Of a DNA stretch of 64,000 bases, positions 20,368 to 48,498 are shown in pieces. Under the pieces are notes generated by a model. That model saw only the letters and a program-made list of their open reading frames with translations. It was not told where the DNA came from and ran no database searches. Source of the stretch: a bacterium (GTDB lineage: Bacteria > Bacteroidota > Ignavibacteria > Kapaibacteriales > Kapaibacteriaceae); contig DAITZZ010000003.1 in assembly GCA_036840065.1 (NCBI GenBank), forward strand, positions 28,378 to 92,377, given 5' to 3'. The number at the start of each line of letters is the position of its first letter. Positions within the stretch are counted from its first letter, which is position 1. The translations under genes were made by a program, and so were the position numbers.

Positions 20368-20393
20368 CCCCCCCCTTTTTCGCGCGCGCGCGC
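20368..20393. repeat. Homopolymer C8-T5 followed by an alternating (CG)6.5 tract in the intergenic region upstream of the 20405 gene
   Basis: Seen directly: ...gacgcccccccctttttcgcgcgcgcgcgctcc... The coordinates are approximate. Confidence 0.6.
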
Positions 20394-41813: not shown

Positions 41814-42503
41814 GTGATGTTGAAAACTATTTTCCTCTGGACGTTCCGCACGATCCTGGCGTTTCTTGTCGGGACGGTCTTGGTCGTTGGCCTCCTGCGC
41901 GTGATACCGCCGGCCATTACACCGCTGATGGTGTGGCGTCTGGTGCAAGCCCCGTTCAGCGGACGGTCCATGCTTATTCGACATCACTGGGTTGGCTACG
42001 ACGAGATCTCTCCATGGGTCGGGCGCGGTGTTGTTGGCGGCGAGGACGCAGGATTCATGCGGCACAATGGCATCGACTGGAACGCGGTCGATCGCGCGCA
42101 GCGTGTGAACGCCTCAAGAGCCAAGCGCGGACGTCCGCCGCTTGGTGCCAGCACCATTACCATGCAGACCTGCAAGAATGTCTTTCTCGTGCCATGGCGG
42201 TCGATGATCAGAAAGGCCTTTGAGGTGTACTTCGTGTACCTCACCGAAGCGCTGTGGGGCAAGAAGCGCATTCTTGAAGTCTACCTGAACATGATCGAAT
42301 GGGGCGACGGAGTCTACGGCATCGATCAGGGCGCGAAGAGCGCTTTCGGTGTCGGGGCAAAAGATCTCACCCGCGACCAGGCGGCTCGTTTGGCTGCGAT
42401 CGTTCCCAACCCCCGGCGTTTCAGCGCGTCGACGCCGAGTGCCTATACTCTACGCCGTGCGGCCTGGATCCGTGGCCGCATGAGCGTGGCCGTGCCGAAG
42501 TAG
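41814..42503 (+). CDS. mtgA: Monofunctional biosynthetic peptidoglycan transglycosylase (GT51)
   Basis: Single TM anchor, then GT51 motifs …EDAGFMRHNGIDW…GASTITMQTCKNVFL…RKAFEVYFVYLTEALWGKKRILEVYLNMIEWGDGVYG…. Confidence 0.85.
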   Translation: MMLKTIFLWTFRTILAFLVGTVLVVGLLRVIPPAITPLMVWRLVQAPFSGRSMLIRHHWVGYDEISPWVGRGVVGGEDAGFMRHNGIDWNAVDRAQRVNASRAKRGRPPLGASTITMQTCKNVFLVPWRSMIRKAFEVYFVYLTEALWGKKRILEVYLNMIEWGDGVYGIDQGAKSAFGVGAKDLTRDQAARLAAIVPNPRRFSASTPSAYTLRRAAWIRGRMSVAVPK

Positions 42504-43637
42504 ATCAAGACACGCCTGCATGTCTGCTGGAAGGGGGCTTTCAAAGGTCATCCGCTGACCCGTGACCGGATGCGTGAACGCAAGCATGCGTGCATGCAGA
42601 GCCTGCCTGTTGATACGTCCGAGCAAGGAAGATGCCAGAGGTCTGTAGGCCGTGTGCAGGCCCCCTACGGCAGTCTCCCGACCTCCATAGTCTGCATCGC
42701 CGATGAGTGGATGTTTACCAGAGCTCAGGTGTACGCGGATCTGATGCGTACGTCCGGTGCGAAGCCTGCAGGCGATCAGTGTGGCACAGTCGAACCGCTC
42801 CAGAACGCTGACCTCGGTTGCAGCATACTTCCCCCCCGTGCGAAGCACGGCTCGCAGGGTTCGATCCTTGGGAGAGCGACCGATCTGACCCTCGATAAGC
42901 CGGTGATCATCGGCGATCACTCCCCAGGCAAGCGCTACGTACTGACGTGAGACCGTGCGGTTTGCAAACTGCGTAGCAAGGTGCATGGTCGGACCATATG
43001 TCTTGCCAATGACCATCACGCCGGTGGTATCCCGATCGAGACGATGCACGATACCGGGTCGAACACCGGGAACCTCTTCTGCACCAAGCTCATCGCTTCC
43101 CCACTGTGCCTGGTCATCCTCATCTGCTTGATCATCACGAGGCGCAGAAGCTGCATCCTCATCGTCTTCTTCGCCCCATGACTCGCGGGCTTTGAGAACG
43201 CGCATCGGCTCACGCTGTCCGAGGTGCCATAGCACGGCATTGACGAGTGTTCCATCGCGGTTGCCAAGTCCGGGATGGACAAGAATTCCGGCAGCCTTGT
43301 CGATCACCATCAGGTGCTCGTCCTCATAGAGGACCGACAGTGGAATATCCTGCGGGATGAGCTGCAAAGGGGGCGGCCGCATAACCGTAACGCGGATCAC
43401 ATCGCCGGGACGGATCTTGTAGTTTGCCTTTGTTGGACGGTCATTGACCGTTACCGCATCAGCGTCGATGGCCTTCTGCACGCGCGTGCGCGTGGCGTGC
43501 ACAATGCTGTGCGTCAGAAACGCATCCACGCGCTCGGGCCTCTGTCCGGACGGAATGGCAAACTCGTACACATGCTCACTCCACTCCAGCGGCGATCGCG
43601 TTGCCGGCGCCTCCGCCTCAGCCTTCTTTTTCATCAC
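42450..43637 (-). CDS. rluD: RluA-family 23S rRNA pseudouridine synthase (RluD-like) with an internal acidic insertion
   Basis: S4 domain (…VDAFLTHSIVHATRTRVQKAIDADAVTVNDRPTKANYKIRPGDVI…), the catalytic motif HRLDRDTTGVMVIGKT, and an inserted acidic stretch EEDDEDAASAPRDDQADEDDQAQ. The 3' end overlaps the convergent mtgA by ~54 nt. Confidence 0.85.
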   Translation of the reverse strand: MMKKKAEAEAPATRSPLEWSEHVYEFAIPSGQRPERVDAFLTHSIVHATRTRVQKAIDADAVTVNDRPTKANYKIRPGDVIRVTVMRPPPLQLIPQDIPLSVLYEDEHLMVIDKAAGILVHPGLGNRDGTLVNAVLWHLGQREPMRVLKARESWGEEDDEDAASAPRDDQADEDDQAQWGSDELGAEEVPGVRPGIVHRLDRDTTGVMVIGKTYGPTMHLATQFANRTVSRQYVALAWGVIADDHRLIEGQIGRSPKDRTLRAVLRTGGKYAATEVSVLERFDCATLIACRLRTGRTHQIRVHLSSGKHPLIGDADYGGRETAVGGLHTAYRPLASSLLGRINRQALHARMLAFTHPVTGQRMTFESPLPADMQACLDLLRHGHAHAATDPGRTA

Positions 43638-44214
43638 GGACGCTGAACAGGGGCAGGTTCTGGTCGCTGATCATCGAGGCGATGAGTAGCGTGACCACGC
43701 CGACAGATACGCAGGAGTCAGCAATGTTAAAGACAGGCCAGTGCGTGTACAGCTCTCCAAAGAGCGAAACGTCGGGAATGTCCACCTGCAAAAAGTCAAC
43801 GACCTTCCCATAAAACAGTGGACCCTCTCCGTAGATGACGCCGTAGAACATCCGATCAATGAGATTACCGACGGCACCGCCCAACAGCAGAGTGAGGGAA
43901 AATCTCACGAGGCGGGCAGTCGCCGGCGTCTGCATGATCATCCTGACTATCAGCATCACAATCCCGATCGTCAGCAGCGTCAGGATGATCTTCGCATCCC
44001 CCCATCCAATGCCAAAGGCCATACCGGGATTCTCAACAAAGGTCAGTCGGAGCGTTTCTCCCAACAGGGGGCGACTCTCACCGAGGAACATCCCGTGGTG
44101 GACCACACCGAAGAGGTCGAAGCCCTTGACGAGGACCTTCGTGACCTGGTCGAGTACCACAAGCATCGCAGCGATGATCAGTGGCCAGCGTACAGAGCGA
44201 AATGCCTCAGACAC
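43618..44214 (-). CDS. lspA: Lipoprotein signal peptidase (signal peptidase II)
   Basis: Four TM helices with conserved LspA motifs (…LIIAAMLVVLDQVTK…, …FNIADSCVSVGV…). Confidence 0.85.
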   Translation of the reverse strand: MSEAFRSVRWPLIIAAMLVVLDQVTKVLVKGFDLFGVVHHGMFLGESRPLLGETLRLTFVENPGMAFGIGWGDAKIILTLLTIGIVMLIVRMIMQTPATARLVRFSLTLLLGGAVGNLIDRMFYGVIYGEGPLFYGKVVDFLQVDIPDVSLFGELYTHWPVFNIADSCVSVGVVTLLIASMISDQNLPLFSVRDEKEG

Positions 44215-44219
44215 GTTGA

Positions 44220-44783
44220 TCAGTTCGAACCTTTAGCCTGGATGCGATCAATTCCGTCATCTGGACAGCGCTTGCGGATCTTGTACGATGCGGACTGCGT
44301 GGTGATCGGTACGGCGAGCAGTCGCTCACGCGCAATGAGAATTCCGCACATATGACAGATTCCGTACGTCTTGTCGTCGATCCGCACGATAGCCTCATCC
44401 AGCTTACGGATGTAATCCTGCACGCGCTGAATCTGAGCGTACGTCTTCTCCTTCTCGGCTGCCTCGGAGCCCTGTTCGGCCATGTGCATGGAGTAGATCG
44501 ACGAATCTTCGTTGGCCTCACTGTTGGTGAGGTCCTCGAGACGCTCCCGTAGCATACGGAGCTCCTCAAGGGCATCAGCTTTTGCGCGTTCGATGTTTTC
44601 GCGGAAAGACTTCAGATCCGCATCAGAATAGCGCGGGGTCTTCTTGACAGGTTGCTTTTTTGCTGGCACTGGTATCGGTGAAACGGATGATAAAGAAGAA
44701 CCCGCACCGGTGGTCGTACTGACCGCCGATGCGGGCTTCATATTCGCAGTCACTGTCTTGGGTTGCGGCTTCGGACTCGTCAT
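44220..44783 (-). CDS. DksA/TraR-family C4-type zinc-finger protein with an unusually long K/S/A/P-rich N-terminal region
   Basis: A coiled-coil region (…DLKSFRENIERAKADALEELRMLRERLEDLTNSEANEDSS…EKEKTYAQIQRVQDYIRKLDEAIVRIDDKTYG) and a C-terminal finger ICHMCGILIARERLLAVPITTQSASYKIRKRC. The frame stays open (no stop, no ATG/GTG/TTG) for ~190 nt upstream of the annotated ATG. Confidence 0.7.
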   Translation of the reverse strand: MTSPKPQPKTVTANMKPASAVSTTTGAGSSLSSVSPIPVPAKKQPVKKTPRYSDADLKSFRENIERAKADALEELRMLRERLEDLTNSEANEDSSIYSMHMAEQGSEAAEKEKTYAQIQRVQDYIRKLDEAIVRIDDKTYGICHMCGILIARERLLAVPITTQSASYKIRKRCPDDGIDRIQAKGSN

Positions 44784-44935
44784 CTTCCTACTTGCTGCTG
44801 CTGAAACCGTACCCGTCTTGGCTGTTGCCGAACTTTTCTTCGACGCGGATGCAGACGTCTTTACAGACGCAGATCCTTTGGAAGCCGATTTACCCTTCGA
44901 CGTTGCTGACTGCTTGGCCGAGTTAGGAGTTACCC

Positions 44936-45166
44936 TTACTTGGCTTTTTTTTTTGCCGCAGGCTTTGCAGCCTTCTTAGCTGGCTTTGCCGCTGGCTTCG
45001 CAGCCTTCTTGGCTGGCTTAGCTGCTGGCTTTGCAGCCTTCTTGGCTGGCTTTGCCGCTGGCTTCGCAGCCTTCTTGGCTGGCTTTGCAGCCTTCTTGGC
45101 TGGCTTTGCAGCCTTCTTAGCTGGCTTGGCCGCTGGTTTCTTGGCGGCTTTCTTTGCTGCTGCCAT
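44936..45166 (-). CDS. Histone H1-like lysine/alanine/proline-repeat protein (76 aa)
   Basis: MAAAKKAAKKPAAKPAKKAAKPAKKAAKPAKKAAKPAAKPAKKAAKPAAKPAKKAAKPAAKPAKKAAKPAAKKKAK. The other two frames on this strand encode low-complexity R/L/Q or G/F/A strings. This frame gives a typical bacterial H1/Hc1-like basic tail. Confidence 0.6.
   Translation of the reverse strand: MAAAKKAAKKPAAKPAKKAAKPAKKAAKPAKKAAKPAAKPAKKAAKPAAKPAKKAAKPAAKPAKKAAKPAAKKKAK
44955..45150. repeat. Tandem DNA repeats (~21-nt units, e.g. ggctttgcagccttcttggct) encoding the AKKAAKP repeats
   Basis: Directly visible periodicity in the nucleotide sequence of the H1-like gene. A T10 homopolymer (~44945-44954, A10 on the coding strand) lies immediately 3' of the repeats. 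Confidence 0.7.
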
Positions 45167-45225
45167 GAGAGTACCTCAAAAAAAGTGAAACATGAAAACG
45201 CGTGCGCCACCTTGACGCACCATCA

Positions 45226-48200
45226 TCAAACACGCTGAACGCGTACGTTGACGTGACGCCCGTTTATCTCGAGTCCAGTTCCTTCGAACTGTCCCCCCCG
45301 CTCGAGCGCTTCCGCCAGCGTTTCCATTGCAATGTACGACCGCATGGACTCGAGCGCGATGGACGTGTCATCATCTGTCTCGTAGAGAACAGTGATGCGA
45401 TCCGTCACATCAAACCCCGAATCCTTACGGAGCTTTTGAAGGCGACTGACAAACTCACGAGCGAGACCCTCGCGAATGAGCTCTTCGTCTAGTTCGGTAT
45501 CAAGGGCGACCGTTACGCCGTTGTCACTTGCAACAAGCCAGCCTTCGATATCCTCGCTGATGATCTCAACGTCTTCGAAATCAATCTGCACATTTCGTTC
45601 ACCAACATCGATCGTCAGGACTGACGACTGCTCGAGCCTTCGAACATCGTCATGCGTCATGCTCTTGATCGCGTTGGCCACCGACTGCGTGTCGCCTCCA
45701 TACTTACGCCCAATCACTTTGAAGTTCGGGCGAGCACTGCGACGAACGATGTTCGTATCGTCCGAAACGTACTCGATGGATTTGACGTTGATCTCTTCTG
45801 TGATAATCTCTTCGACCGACTGTATGTGTCTGCGCATTTGCGGACTGTCGACCGGAAGAAGAATTCGTTTCAACGGTTGACGCGTTTTGATCTTCGCCTT
45901 CTCTCTCAAAGAACGAGCAAGAGAAACAATTCGTTGCGCTTGCTGCATGCGGTGTTCCAGATCGGAATCGATGACTGTCTCATCGCACCGTTGCAATATA
46001 ATACAATGCACAGTGAATTGTTCTTGATGCAAACGCAATCGTAAGAAAAGTGACTCAGCTAAAAACGGAGCAACAGGAGCCGTCATTTCCGTGACGCGAA
46101 GCAGTACCTCGTGCAGCGTCTGATAGGCTGCACGCTTGTCGGCATCGTACTCACCTTTCCAGAAGCGACGGCGGTTGCGACGCACGTACCAGTTGGAGAC
46201 TTCTTCGATCATAAACTCTTGTAGAAGTCGGCATGCCCTGGTCAGATCATACTCATCCATCGCTGCCGTGTAGCTCTTGATGAGCGTGTGCAGTCGTGAG
46301 ATGATCCAGCGGTCGATCTCCGGACGCTCTGCGATCGGGATCAGCGACTCGGCCGCTGAATAGCCGTCAACATTGGCGTAGAGAGCAAAGAACTCATACG
46401 TATTCGTGAGCGAGCGGAAGAAGTCGGCGATGACAGTCTTCGCAATATCATCCTCATTCCACAGCTTGGGCTTGTGGACCGGCGAAGACGTCATGAGGAA
46501 CCAGCGAATGGCATCGCTGCCGAAGCGTGAGATGACCTCGAACGGATCGACGGTGTTACCCTTCGACTTCGACATCTTCTGACCACGCTTGTCGAGCACA
46601 AGATCGTTGACTACCACATGGCGATATGCCGGCGCATCGAAGAGCGCCGTCGAGATGTTGTGCAGTGTATAGAACCAGCCTCTGGTCTGATCGATTCCTT
46701 CAGCAATGAAGTCCGCCGGGAACGATGCCTCAAAGAGCTCCTTGTTCTCAAACGGATAGTGGAACTGTGCAAACGGCATGCTACCGGAGTCGAACCAAAC
46801 ATCAACGACCTCGCGCGTGCGTCGGTACGTCACACCGTCGCGTTCAAACACGACACGATCAACGAACGGCCGGTGCAAGTCCACGGCCACTCCGCACTGC
46901 GCCACAGGAACGCGCGTACCATCTTCCCGCTCATAGAGTCCGGCATGAAGTTCTTCGATCGAACCGACGGCGAACATCGACGTACCGTCCTCGCTGACCC
47001 AGATCGGAAGGGGGCTACCCCAATACCTGTCGCGGGAGATCGACCACTCCTTGACTTCTTCGAGCCAATTTCCAAAACGGCCCTCTCCGATCTCTTCGGG
47101 ATGCCAGTTAACGCTGCGATTGAGTTCGACGAGCCGATCACGATAGCGCGGCGAACGAATGAACCAGGAATCGCGCGCATAGTAAATGACCGGGTTGTCC
47201 GTGCGCCAGCAATGCGGATAGCTGTGCAGGTAGTCGAAGGACGCTTTGTAGATCTTGCCGGCGATCTTCAACGCCTTGACGATGTCACGATCGGCCCCCT
47301 CCTCGGTGTGATCCGAGTACGTAAACGACTTTACGGCACGTCCCGAAAAGTCCCTGATCTCCGATGAAAAGTGTCCGTTTGGAGAGACCGGCTGAGGAAC
47401 GGGCAGATGAAAGAGCTTCGACATTTCGAAGTCGTCCTGGCCAAAGGCCGGCGCAAGGTGCACAATTCCGGATCCGTCATCTGTCGAGACAAAGTCGCCT
47501 GGAAGGATCGTCAGAACATGCGGATGCTGATCAGCATCGAGAGCAACATCACTGAAAATCTGCTCATAGGCCGAGCCAACGATCTCCGAACCCTTATGCG
47601 ATGAGAGAATCTCGACGTCGCCTTCCAGGATGGCAAGGCGTGATTCAGCAAGCAGAAGCTCTTCGCTGATCGTTGACTCACCTACCTGGCGCGTGTTACG
47701 AACGCGCACGTAGGTTATACCGGCGCCAACGGCAAGAGCGACATTGGCAAACAACGTCCACGGCGTGGTCGTCCAAACCAGAACCTTCACACCACGAAGG
47801 GACTCGACCGGCGAACTGGTAATGGCGAGCTTGAGATAGACGTTGGGGTCACGGACCTCTTTGTAATTCTGTGACAGCTCATGCGACGATAGTGGCGTGC
47901 CCAGCGTTGGGGACTGCGGCACCACCTTGTATCCACGGTAAATGAGCCCCTTATCGAAGAACTGCTTCAGAGCCCACCAGACGGACTCGATGTAGTTGTT
48001 CGTGCAGGTGATGTAGGCGCTGTCAAGATCAAGCCAATGCCCCATCCGACGTGTAAGCGTGCGCCATCCGCTCTCCATGGTGATGTTGCGGTAGACGATG
48101 TCCTTGCATGCGGCATTGAACACGTCGACGCCCATCACCTCGATCTGCGCCTTATCGGTGATGCCGAGCTCCTTCTCGGCACTGAGCTCCACCGGAAGTC

Positions 48201-48498
48201 CGTGCGTGTCCCAGCCGGCCTGGCGGCGTACGAAGAAGCCCTGCATGTTCTTGTAGCGGCAGACGGAGTCTTTGATGGTCCGCGCAAGAACATGGTGAAT
48301 GCCGGGCTTGCCGTTTACCGTTGGCGGTCCTTCATAAAAAGTGAAGGACGGCGCTGATTGTCGCAGTTCCTGAGTACGAGCGAACACATTATTCGCTTCC
48401 CAGTATTCAAGGATGGACTCTTCTTGCGTTGGGTAGGAGAAATCGTCAGGAAGAGGTTGAAACATGTGCTGCAGGAATCCCCAGATGATCGATCTCAC
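45226..48498 (-). CDS. ileS: Isoleucyl-tRNA synthetase (type 2, eukaryote/Bacteroidota-like, ~1090 aa)
   Basis: HIGH region (…PTVNGKPGIHHVLARTIKD…), KMSKS (…KMSKSKGN…), the editing CP1 domain, and a long C-terminal extension. An alternative start is at Met12 (48465). Confidence 0.95.
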   Translation of the reverse strand: MRSIIWGFLQHMFQPLPDDFSYPTQEESILEYWEANNVFARTQELRQSAPSFTFYEGPPTVNGKPGIHHVLARTIKDSVCRYKNMQGFFVRRQAGWDTHGLPVELSAEKELGITDKAQIEVMGVDVFNAACKDIVYRNITMESGWRTLTRRMGHWLDLDSAYITCTNNYIESVWWALKQFFDKGLIYRGYKVVPQSPTLGTPLSSHELSQNYKEVRDPNVYLKLAITSSPVESLRGVKVLVWTTTPWTLFANVALAVGAGITYVRVRNTRQVGESTISEELLLAESRLAILEGDVEILSSHKGSEIVGSAYEQIFSDVALDADQHPHVLTILPGDFVSTDDGSGIVHLAPAFGQDDFEMSKLFHLPVPQPVSPNGHFSSEIRDFSGRAVKSFTYSDHTEEGADRDIVKALKIAGKIYKASFDYLHSYPHCWRTDNPVIYYARDSWFIRSPRYRDRLVELNRSVNWHPEEIGEGRFGNWLEEVKEWSISRDRYWGSPLPIWVSEDGTSMFAVGSIEELHAGLYEREDGTRVPVAQCGVAVDLHRPFVDRVVFERDGVTYRRTREVVDVWFDSGSMPFAQFHYPFENKELFEASFPADFIAEGIDQTRGWFYTLHNISTALFDAPAYRHVVVNDLVLDKRGQKMSKSKGNTVDPFEVISRFGSDAIRWFLMTSSPVHKPKLWNEDDIAKTVIADFFRSLTNTYEFFALYANVDGYSAAESLIPIAERPEIDRWIISRLHTLIKSYTAAMDEYDLTRACRLLQEFMIEEVSNWYVRRNRRRFWKGEYDADKRAAYQTLHEVLLRVTEMTAPVAPFLAESLFLRLRLHQEQFTVHCIILQRCDETVIDSDLEHRMQQAQRIVSLARSLREKAKIKTRQPLKRILLPVDSPQMRRHIQSVEEIITEEINVKSIEYVSDDTNIVRRSARPNFKVIGRKYGGDTQSVANAIKSMTHDDVRRLEQSSVLTIDVGERNVQIDFEDVEIISEDIEGWLVASDNGVTVALDTELDEELIREGLAREFVSRLQKLRKDSGFDVTDRITVLYETDDDTSIALESMRSYIAMETLAEALERGGQFEGTGLEINGRHVNVRVQRV

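Follow-up and report, generated by a model that had tools for sequence, protein, structure and literature searches.

A conserved run of ten adenines between an H1-like and a DksA-like reading frame in Kapaibacteriaceae as a candidate site of programmed recoding

Two open reading frames (ORFs) on the minus strand of a bacterial DNA stretch of 64,000 nucleotides (nt), here called the window (contig DAITZZ010000003.1 of assembly GCA_036840065.1, family Kapaibacteriaceae), encode a short basic protein resembling histone H1 and, downstream, a member of the DksA/TraR superfamily. The two are offset by a change of frame at a run of ten adenines (A10), and comparison with related genomes indicates that they are very probably one gene expressed by programmed recoding at this conserved run. 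Standard decoding would yield a 76-amino-acid H1-like basic protein that ends two codons past the run. A fraction of expression would shift to the -1 frame at the run and yield a protein of 315 amino acids, composed of the H1-like tail, a disordered Ser/Lys-rich linker and a DksA-fold domain. Internal initiation at an AGGAA motif followed by ATG or GTG would supply an extra, tail-less DksA of 187 amino acids.

The H1-like ORF (45166..44936; this and the following coordinates are on the minus strand unless the plus strand is named) starts MAAAKKAAKKPAAKPAKK and encodes a pure Lys/Ala/Pro repeat (KAAKP) with an isoelectric point of 11.5 and no acidic residue. Its terminal codons are GCG GCA AAA AAA AAA GCC AAG TAA. 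The A10 run, the proposed slip site (44954..44945; T10 on the plus strand), is read in the zero frame as GC-A AAA AAA AAA, and the zero-frame stop TAA (44938..44936) lies two codons beyond it. This run is the sole A/T run longer than seven nucleotides in the window, where the only other homopolymer of at least eight is a C8 at 20368-20375. The DksA-like ORF (44783..44220; 187 amino acids) sits in the -1 frame relative to the H1-like ORF. In that frame the last upstream stop is a TAA at 44978..44976, and the frame is open from 44975 into the DksA-like ORF, reading ...GKKKSQVRVTPNSAKQSATSKGKSASKG...AAASRK-MTSPKPQPK. The A10 run falls within the 40-nt overlap of the two frames (44975..44936), the segment in which the frame must change. 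The Ser/Lys/Ala/Thr-rich linker (SQVRVTPNSAK...AAASRK; 44945..44784) contains no ATG, GTG or TTG in the -1 frame ahead of 44783, so within the window translation can enter it only from the H1-like ORF. An earlier reading of the window's letters, referred to below as the original prediction, had described the KAAKP ORF with its terminal codons and A10, together with a -1 frame open from about 44975 without a start codon until 44783. All of these are present as described, and the size of the fused product, which had been put at about 310 amino acids, is corrected to 315 when one A is inserted at the run.

The same split is found across related genomes. An exact-sequence look-up of the 187-residue protein found it not on record, and close homologues were used instead, annotated as Candidatus Kapabacteria/Kapaibacterium, Ignavibacteria or Chlorobiota metagenome-assembled genomes. 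DNA was retrieved for 164 related loci, 76 of which show the split arrangement; these include 46 of the 80 GTDB species-representative genomes returned. Every split locus has an H1-like ORF of 42-163 amino acids, an A run, a zero-frame stop soon after the run (0-3 codons past it in the main clade, within six codons in the two loci L141/L147) and a DksA frame that opens just upstream of the run. Run length is A10 in 75 of the 76; the remaining locus has A11 because the G after the run is replaced by A, leaving total length and frame relation unchanged. A run length that restores a single frame is seen in none of the 76.

Sequences around the run differ among loci on both the 5' side (GCGGC, GTGGC, GCTGC, CCGGC, GCAGG) and the 3' side (GCCAAGTAA, GCTTAA, GCAGCCAAGTAA, GTGAGCTAA, TAG). 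Elsewhere in these ORFs, Lys is encoded by AAG 1446 times and by AAA 201 times, and in the 179 kb of related loci there is no further A10. Where near-identical strains were obtained from different samples (W/L005/L006/L085/L091, L001/L002, L009/L010/L094, L013-L016 and L021/L120/L121), each of them has A10, and the assemblies come from varied sources (SPAdes, MEGAHIT, hybrid OPERA contigs, JGI, ENA, NCBI). Several of the loci originate from intensively sampled freshwater lakes. Apparent exceptions within the split clade are loci cut by contig ends (L007, L020, L108, L112) or interrupted by a 100-N scaffold gap (L144). The ancestral single ORF could readily be restored by insertion of one A, yet this mutation is never seen, which implies that the split state itself is selected; if so, the free H1-like product, or a lowered level of the fusion, would matter to the cell.

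Some individual loci depart from the pattern in other ways. L026 (2.6x coverage) has unrelated upstream sequence, either a chimera or a rearrangement, and L033 (about 3x coverage) has an extra 1-nt indel in the linker; both come from one microbial-mat assembly, and the same-species sister contigs L027, L028 and L030 are intact. In L093, a species representative, the H1-like repeat ORF appears to shift frame once within the repeats (~1100-1300), upstream of A10; this may be a genuine second shift or an error in assembling the repeats.

By its pattern of sequence change, the spacer between the run and the DksA domain is coding in the DksA frame. That frame has no stop over 90-190 codons in each split locus, and the other frames have 2-10 stops each. 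A stricter count was confined to the stretch from the run to 52 codons ahead of the DksA core, upstream of any plausible internal start, in 56 non-redundant loci; over these 2,997 codons the DksA frame has 0 stops and the other two have 146 and 176, a contrast far beyond chance and in line with the original prediction that the spacer continues the coding sequence. Within three subgroups, all linker length differences are multiples of three. In the same subgroups, the ratio of nonsynonymous to synonymous polymorphism (pN/pS), calculated for the linker in full, is 0.28-0.71 for the DksA frame and 0.78-2.3 for the others. For the part upstream of the internal start it is 0.48-0.70, with the DksA frame lowest in two of the three groups, and such moderate values fit a weakly constrained disordered linker.

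Uninterrupted counterparts of the predicted fusion exist in neighbouring lineages. Many homologues of 216-376 amino acids are single ORFs in which a long K/A/T/S-rich basic N-terminal tail precedes the DksA domain (P0087, P0092 and P0085, for example), and some of the tails match HC2/H1-like models weakly. Because such ORFs are common next door, the predicted fusion corresponds to the normal architecture there. A single fused H1-DksA ORF, for which a search of related genomes had been proposed as a check, is thus present in neighbouring lineages, and the suggested one-nucleotide slip to an H1-tail–linker–DksA protein gains support from these relatives, the conserved A10 and the coding spacer.

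In a neighbour-joining tree of the 131-amino-acid core, the main-clade members, all of them split, form one clade, and the outgroups are uninterrupted or have short N-termini. L141 and L147 sit outside the main clade, among uninterrupted forms, with EQFAPVPMASRLQR as a common linker motif. Their A10 runs (L141:1152-1161 and L147:1140-1149) lie in a different codon phase, G AAA AAA AAA G, and offer the slippery heptamer A_AAA_AAG, where the main-clade phase GC-A AAA AAA AAA contains A_AAA_AAA. The first A of the L141 run also belongs to a TGA stop of the -1 frame, so that in this locus the frame can change nowhere but at the run. The L141/L147 runs probably represent a second, independent origin of recoding.

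Structural modelling and sequence matches show that the downstream ORF has the DksA fold and is a non-canonical member of that family. Residues 1-50 are disordered, residues 54-136 form a coiled-coil hairpin with the invariant tip IYSMHMAEQGSE, and CxxC...SxxY is found in the globular part at the C-terminus. Family profiles score below their thresholds: Pfam zf-dskA_traR at 23.8 bits (gathering score 24.9), NCBIfam YteA at 70.8 bits (cut-off 134.4) and NCBIfam DksA at 44.8 bits (cut-off 115.5). Sequence matches in the PDB include Chlamydia DksA 6ptg (5.6e-9) and E. coli DksA 1tjl (1.2e-3). An AlphaFold model built from a 53-sequence alignment places helices at 54-94 and 100-136 with a predicted local distance difference test score (pLDDT) above 90, and its best Foldseek matches are P. 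aeruginosa DksA2 4ijj (template modelling score, TM, 0.77) and E. coli DksA 1tjl and 5vsw, including DksA bound to RNA polymerase (RNAP).

The zinc finger, which the original prediction took to be of the C4 type, is C143-x2-C146 ... S164-x2-Y167 (the second pair reading S164-A-S-Y167) and not CxxC-x17-CxxC; the second CxxC is replaced throughout the family, and a third Cys, C173 (in RCP[ED]DG), is invariant. P. aeruginosa DksA2, the best structural match, is also reported to lack a full C4 finger. The coiled-coil tip, YSMHMAEQGSE, is invariant in 53 homologues and is not DxxDxA, the acidic motif of E. coli DksA that extends to the RNAP active site. By the spacing of the HMMER alignment, E103 stands opposite D71, and S106/E107 opposite D74; the tip thus contains acidic residues, in a non-canonical motif.

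A conserved string, CAGCAGCAAGTAGGAA-N-[A/G]TG-ACG, lies ~45-50 codons ahead of the DksA core (homologous sites in L001-L129). In the window it comprises AGGAAG, a Shine-Dalgarno (SD)-like motif, followed by the start codon ATG (44789..44781). The window's subgroup has ATG at this position and most other subgroups have GTG, one or the other being present in almost all main-clade loci. Val at this position is always encoded by GTG, which accounts for 19% of Val codons elsewhere. One subgroup (9 non-redundant loci) has GCG instead and still keeps the frame open. The conserved AGGAA with ATG or GTG is probably an internal start for the 187-residue tail-less DksA, which would be the third product of the locus.

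In most main-clade loci, a hairpin of ~25-34 nt with a predicted energy of -9 to -17 kcal/mol starts at the first base past the run. The window's version is an imperfect hairpin of 28 nt (44944..44917; -10.3 kcal/mol), GCCAAGUAAGGG-UAAC-UCCUAACUCGGC, which encloses the zero-frame stop codon and folds in both 36-nt and 111-nt contexts. Hairpin sequence varies by sublineage (GCC.AAG..., GCTT.AC.CGGG..., TGAGCT..., TAGAGCT..., GCGT..GTCAG....). Folding each sequence separately gives a mean z of -2.0, compared with -0.65 for control windows (Mann-Whitney p = 6e-12). With the structure that we specified, 77.6% of alignment cells are paired (68.5% in shuffles, 18-46% with partners slid) and 38 cells are changed on both sides (11 in shuffles), figures that lean towards that structure, as the hairpin emerged solely from per-sequence folding and from the specified structure. 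RNAalifold, run on the raw 54-sequence alignment, returned no consensus structure. The hairpin is missing in L141/L147 and in a few sublineages, with L017/L116 and L117 among the loci that lack it.

The hairpin's base is 0 nt from the run, and its inner stem lies ~8 nt downstream if the last seven A's serve as the heptamer. The original prediction had advised looking for a stem-loop 5-9 nt past the run; a conserved one was found, but directly at the run. Two-stem stimulators of frameshifting, such as that of HIV-1, resemble a run-adjacent hairpin with an inner stem ~8 nt away. Inspection by eye of the sequence 5' of A10 showed no SD-like stimulator. Read on the plus strand, the stem-loop (44917-44944) is followed directly by T10 (44945-44954), the layout of an intrinsic terminator for antisense transcription.

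Two routes could produce the shift. As the main one, RNAP would slip on the T10 template and the mRNA would gain one A; a slip of the ribosome by -1 on A_AAA_AAA, aided by the 3' hairpin, would be a contributor or an alternative. If recoding takes place, we give polymerase slippage a little better than an even chance of being the dominant route, and ribosomal frameshifting a little less than one. Polymerase slippage is favoured by the invariance of all ten A's, seven of which would be enough for the ribosomal heptamer, by the occurrence of the same run length in two codon phases, and by the match between run length and the RNA:DNA hybrid of 9-10 bp. In bacteria the RNAP hybrid spans 9-10 bp, and slippage in vivo is efficient on A9/T9 runs (PMC5009743 section 43; PMC1088944). 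In E. coli reporter cassettes, A runs of 7, 9 and 11 give 10%, 40% and 63% shifted product, respectively (PMC3711429 section 24), and in dnaX genes split into two ORFs, where the run is A10 in nine species and A7-A9 in three Chlorobi, expression has been assigned to transcriptional realignment (PMC3711429 section 23). The hairpin fits ribosomal frameshifting better, since a polymerase on the run has not yet transcribed it and it cannot act on slippage. Both routes may operate; our slight preference is for polymerase slippage as the constant element, to which the hairpin would add a translational aid.

Several points weigh against recoding, or against polymerase slippage as its route. The slip is one that we infer from comparative sequence; its efficiency, and the binding of the tail to DNA and of the DksA domain to RNAP, are likewise predictions. 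A10 is kept unchanged while its flanks diverge, but the loci compared are mutually related, so the counts overstate the number of independent observations. The covarying 3' hairpin favours -1 ribosomal frameshifting over slippage by the polymerase, and a stimulator of -1 frameshifting would not usually sit 0 nt from the run. The pN/pS ahead of the internal start is only moderately below 1, and in one subgroup another frame has a lower value than the DksA frame. Initiation at the internal start probably suffices to make the DksA domain, with no slip needed, so the fusion is perhaps a minor product. Finally, the junction peptide (KAAKP...KKKSQVRVTPNS...), searched against a database of 5.8 billion proteins to detect A11 fusion alleles or calls derived from cDNA, gave 8,000 candidates and none at E <= 0.01, a weak negative given that the query is of low complexity.

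The most substantial competing explanation is that the locus holds two ordinary genes, with DksA made solely from the internal ATG/GTG (44783) and the open frame upstream of it an untranslated leftover of an ancestral fusion. The conserved SD-like motif and the exclusive use of GTG for Val at that position are what this explanation predicts, gene callers do annotate two genes, and pN/pS is only moderately reduced upstream of the start. An untranslated spacer, however, should collect stops, and in the stretch counted above the DksA frame has none while its indels keep the frame; the subgroup with GCG in place of the start codon also keeps the frame open. Two separate genes would moreover leave the invariant A10, the close zero-frame stop, the adjacent hairpin and the second origin unexplained, and we consider this explanation improbable. 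The original prediction had named a two-gene arrangement in relatives, with a separate start and a non-coding spacer, as evidence against a fusion. Two ORFs are indeed what the relatives show, and a conserved SD-like motif does precede the ATG at 44783, yet the spacer ahead of it is coding. A different account of the A10 and hairpin takes them as an intrinsic terminator for antisense transcription, conserved for that reason. Their plus-strand layout is canonical, and a weak promoter-like site lies on the plus strand at 44262-44289. A pattern scan for terminators nevertheless did not call the hairpin and T10, no gene or conserved ORF lies on the plus strand, L141/L147 and several sublineages keep A10 without the hairpin, and the frame architecture and coding spacer go unexplained. 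Antisense termination is thus quite unlikely as the reason for conservation, and it could coexist with recoding.

Three origins of the frame break had been listed in the original prediction, namely a homopolymer indel from sequencing or assembly, a phase-variable switch, and programmed frameshifting or slippage, and the comparative data single out the last. In a DNA-level switch, replication slippage within populations would convert a split (A10) allele into a fused (A11) one and back. Such slippage is an intrinsic tendency of A10 tracts (discussed in PMC1088944), but all 76 loci, near-identical strains and 46 species-level genomes included, have A10 or its frame equivalent, with zero fused alleles, and the protein-database searches turned up no fused protein of the split clade. 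The comparison excludes such a switch for practical purposes, leaving it scarcely any probability. Least probable of all, to the point of being negligible, is an error that hides a true A11 and a single fused ORF. Indel errors classically arise at homopolymers, but the same run length and frame break recur unchanged in dozens of independent assemblies from different assemblers and projects, and the zero-frame stop right past the run is conserved as well.

If programmed recoding does operate here, A10 might also act as a sensor, with the slip rate of RNAP (or of the ribosome) set by elongation kinetics, nucleoside triphosphate pools or the stringent response and thereby tuning the ratio of H1-like protein, tethered DksA and free DksA. 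We regard this as speculative and rather unlikely, although a split that probably arose twice and was kept despite easy one-base reversion fits an adaptive, tunable three-product design. Were it true, the locus would embody a feedback loop that rests on polymerase infidelity and is tied to the very transcription machinery that DksA regulates. Autoregulation through suppression of slippage by DksA was also considered and is weakened by work in E. coli, where slippage on an A9 run is independent of DksA, unlike GreA/B (PMC4666387).

Around the H1/DksA locus, the gene order ileS (48498..45226), H1/DksA, lspA (44214..43618) and a rluD-type pseudouridine synthase gene (43637..42450) is kept in every relative that was examined and suggests a single, tightly packed operon. 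The GTG that starts lspA (44214) comes 5 nt after the stop of DksA, and the last part of lspA is shared with rluD. Directly past the ileS stop is a terminator-like hairpin (45220..45202), whose sequence is kept in relatives and which is probably the upstream boundary of the H1/DksA transcription unit. Between it and the H1-like ATG (within 45225..45167), a T-rich stretch, CGCGTTTTCATGTTTCACTTTTTTTGAGGTACTCTC, is conserved across the clade and may be the promoter or leader of this unit. An Rfam scan of 44000-45400 matched no family. Antisense to the linker, a 111-amino-acid ORF occupies 44644-44979 of the plus strand; it is probably a mirror of the stop-free Ser/Ala/Lys-rich sense frame and not a gene.

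To our knowledge, the cellular genes of bacteria, phages and insertion sequences (IS) aside, offer no more than a handful of cases of conserved programmed recoding, prfB and dnaX among them. If the proposed recoding is real, a gene for a transcription factor would join this list, and its site, in an uncultured lineage, is fixed in 46 or more species-level genomes and probably arose twice. One locus would then encode a free H1-like protein and an RNAP secondary-channel factor in a nucleoid-tethered and probably also an untethered form, a compact coupling of chromatin-like DNA binding with RNAP regulation. In automatic annotations the gene is systematically broken up into a "hypothetical protein" and a "DksA" that is truncated. 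With an invariant A10 and a covarying 3' hairpin together, the locus is also a natural test case for polymerase slippage versus ribosomal frameshifting. The recoding would be of a known kind (dnaX, mxiE, IS elements) and the H1–DksA architecture is known from the Streptomyces protein DdbA, but recoding in a DksA-family gene appears to be unreported: a 2016 recoding review and a 2013 GeneTack survey do not mention DksA, and full-text searches for DksA with slippage or frameshifting gave unrelated papers alone.

Among known systems, dnaX is the closest parallel for the run itself. In Thermus thermophilus (A9), in split dnaX genes (A10) and in Chlorobi (A7-A9), a long A run likewise marks the frame junction of a cellular gene, stops follow closely in the unused frames, and one locus gives two products (PMC3711429 section 23; PMC1088944; PMC5009743). 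In the split dnaX genes, as proposed here, the slip is required for the longer product, and the three Chlorobi belong to a related phylum-level neighbourhood. The present locus differs in encoding a DksA-like transcription factor in place of a clamp-loader subunit, in having a complete H1-like protein and not a truncated subunit as its short product, in its conserved hairpin past the run, and in being known from sequence alone. Cassettes for -1 frameshifting in E. coli dnaX, IS911/IS3 and the phage tail genes G/GT share the A_AAA_AAA/G heptamer in the zero-frame phase and the downstream stem-loop, and OrfA/OrfAB of IS elements and gpG/gpGT pair a short zero-frame product with a long trans-frame fusion. 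Unlike these cassettes, the present locus conserves ten A's and not seven, its hairpin is 0 nt away, and a second clade does without the hairpin.

For the protein architecture, the published precedent of a nucleoid-tethered DksA is Streptomyces DdbA (SCO2075), whose N-terminal domain is H1-like and whose C-terminal domain is DksA-like; the protein binds DNA, condenses it and suppresses relA phenotypes (PMC3643593). Conditional on the slip, the window protein would be a comparable H1-like–DksA fusion, in which a Lys/Ala-rich tail tethers a DksA-fold domain. DdbA, however, is one ordinary actinobacterial ORF that keeps the C4 finger and both tip aspartates, with a tail specific to streptomycetes (PMC3643593), whereas the protein described here needs recoding for its fusion, has a CxxC...SxxY finger and an AEQGSE tip, and belongs to a YteA/DksA2-like branch of Ignavibacteria/Kapabacteria. 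These differences in finger and tip from DdbA, as described in that study, make orthology unlikely, and the two fusions are probably independent. A last comparison is with Buchnera and Blochmannia, in which frame-disrupted genes with ~10-A tracts are read through by polymerase infidelity (cited in PMC5009743). Those tracts are regarded as tolerated decay in AT-rich, drift-dominated genomes, whereas the A10 tract described here is unique in genomes of 44-58% GC, has one length clade-wide, and preserves a split that a single-base change would easily reverse.

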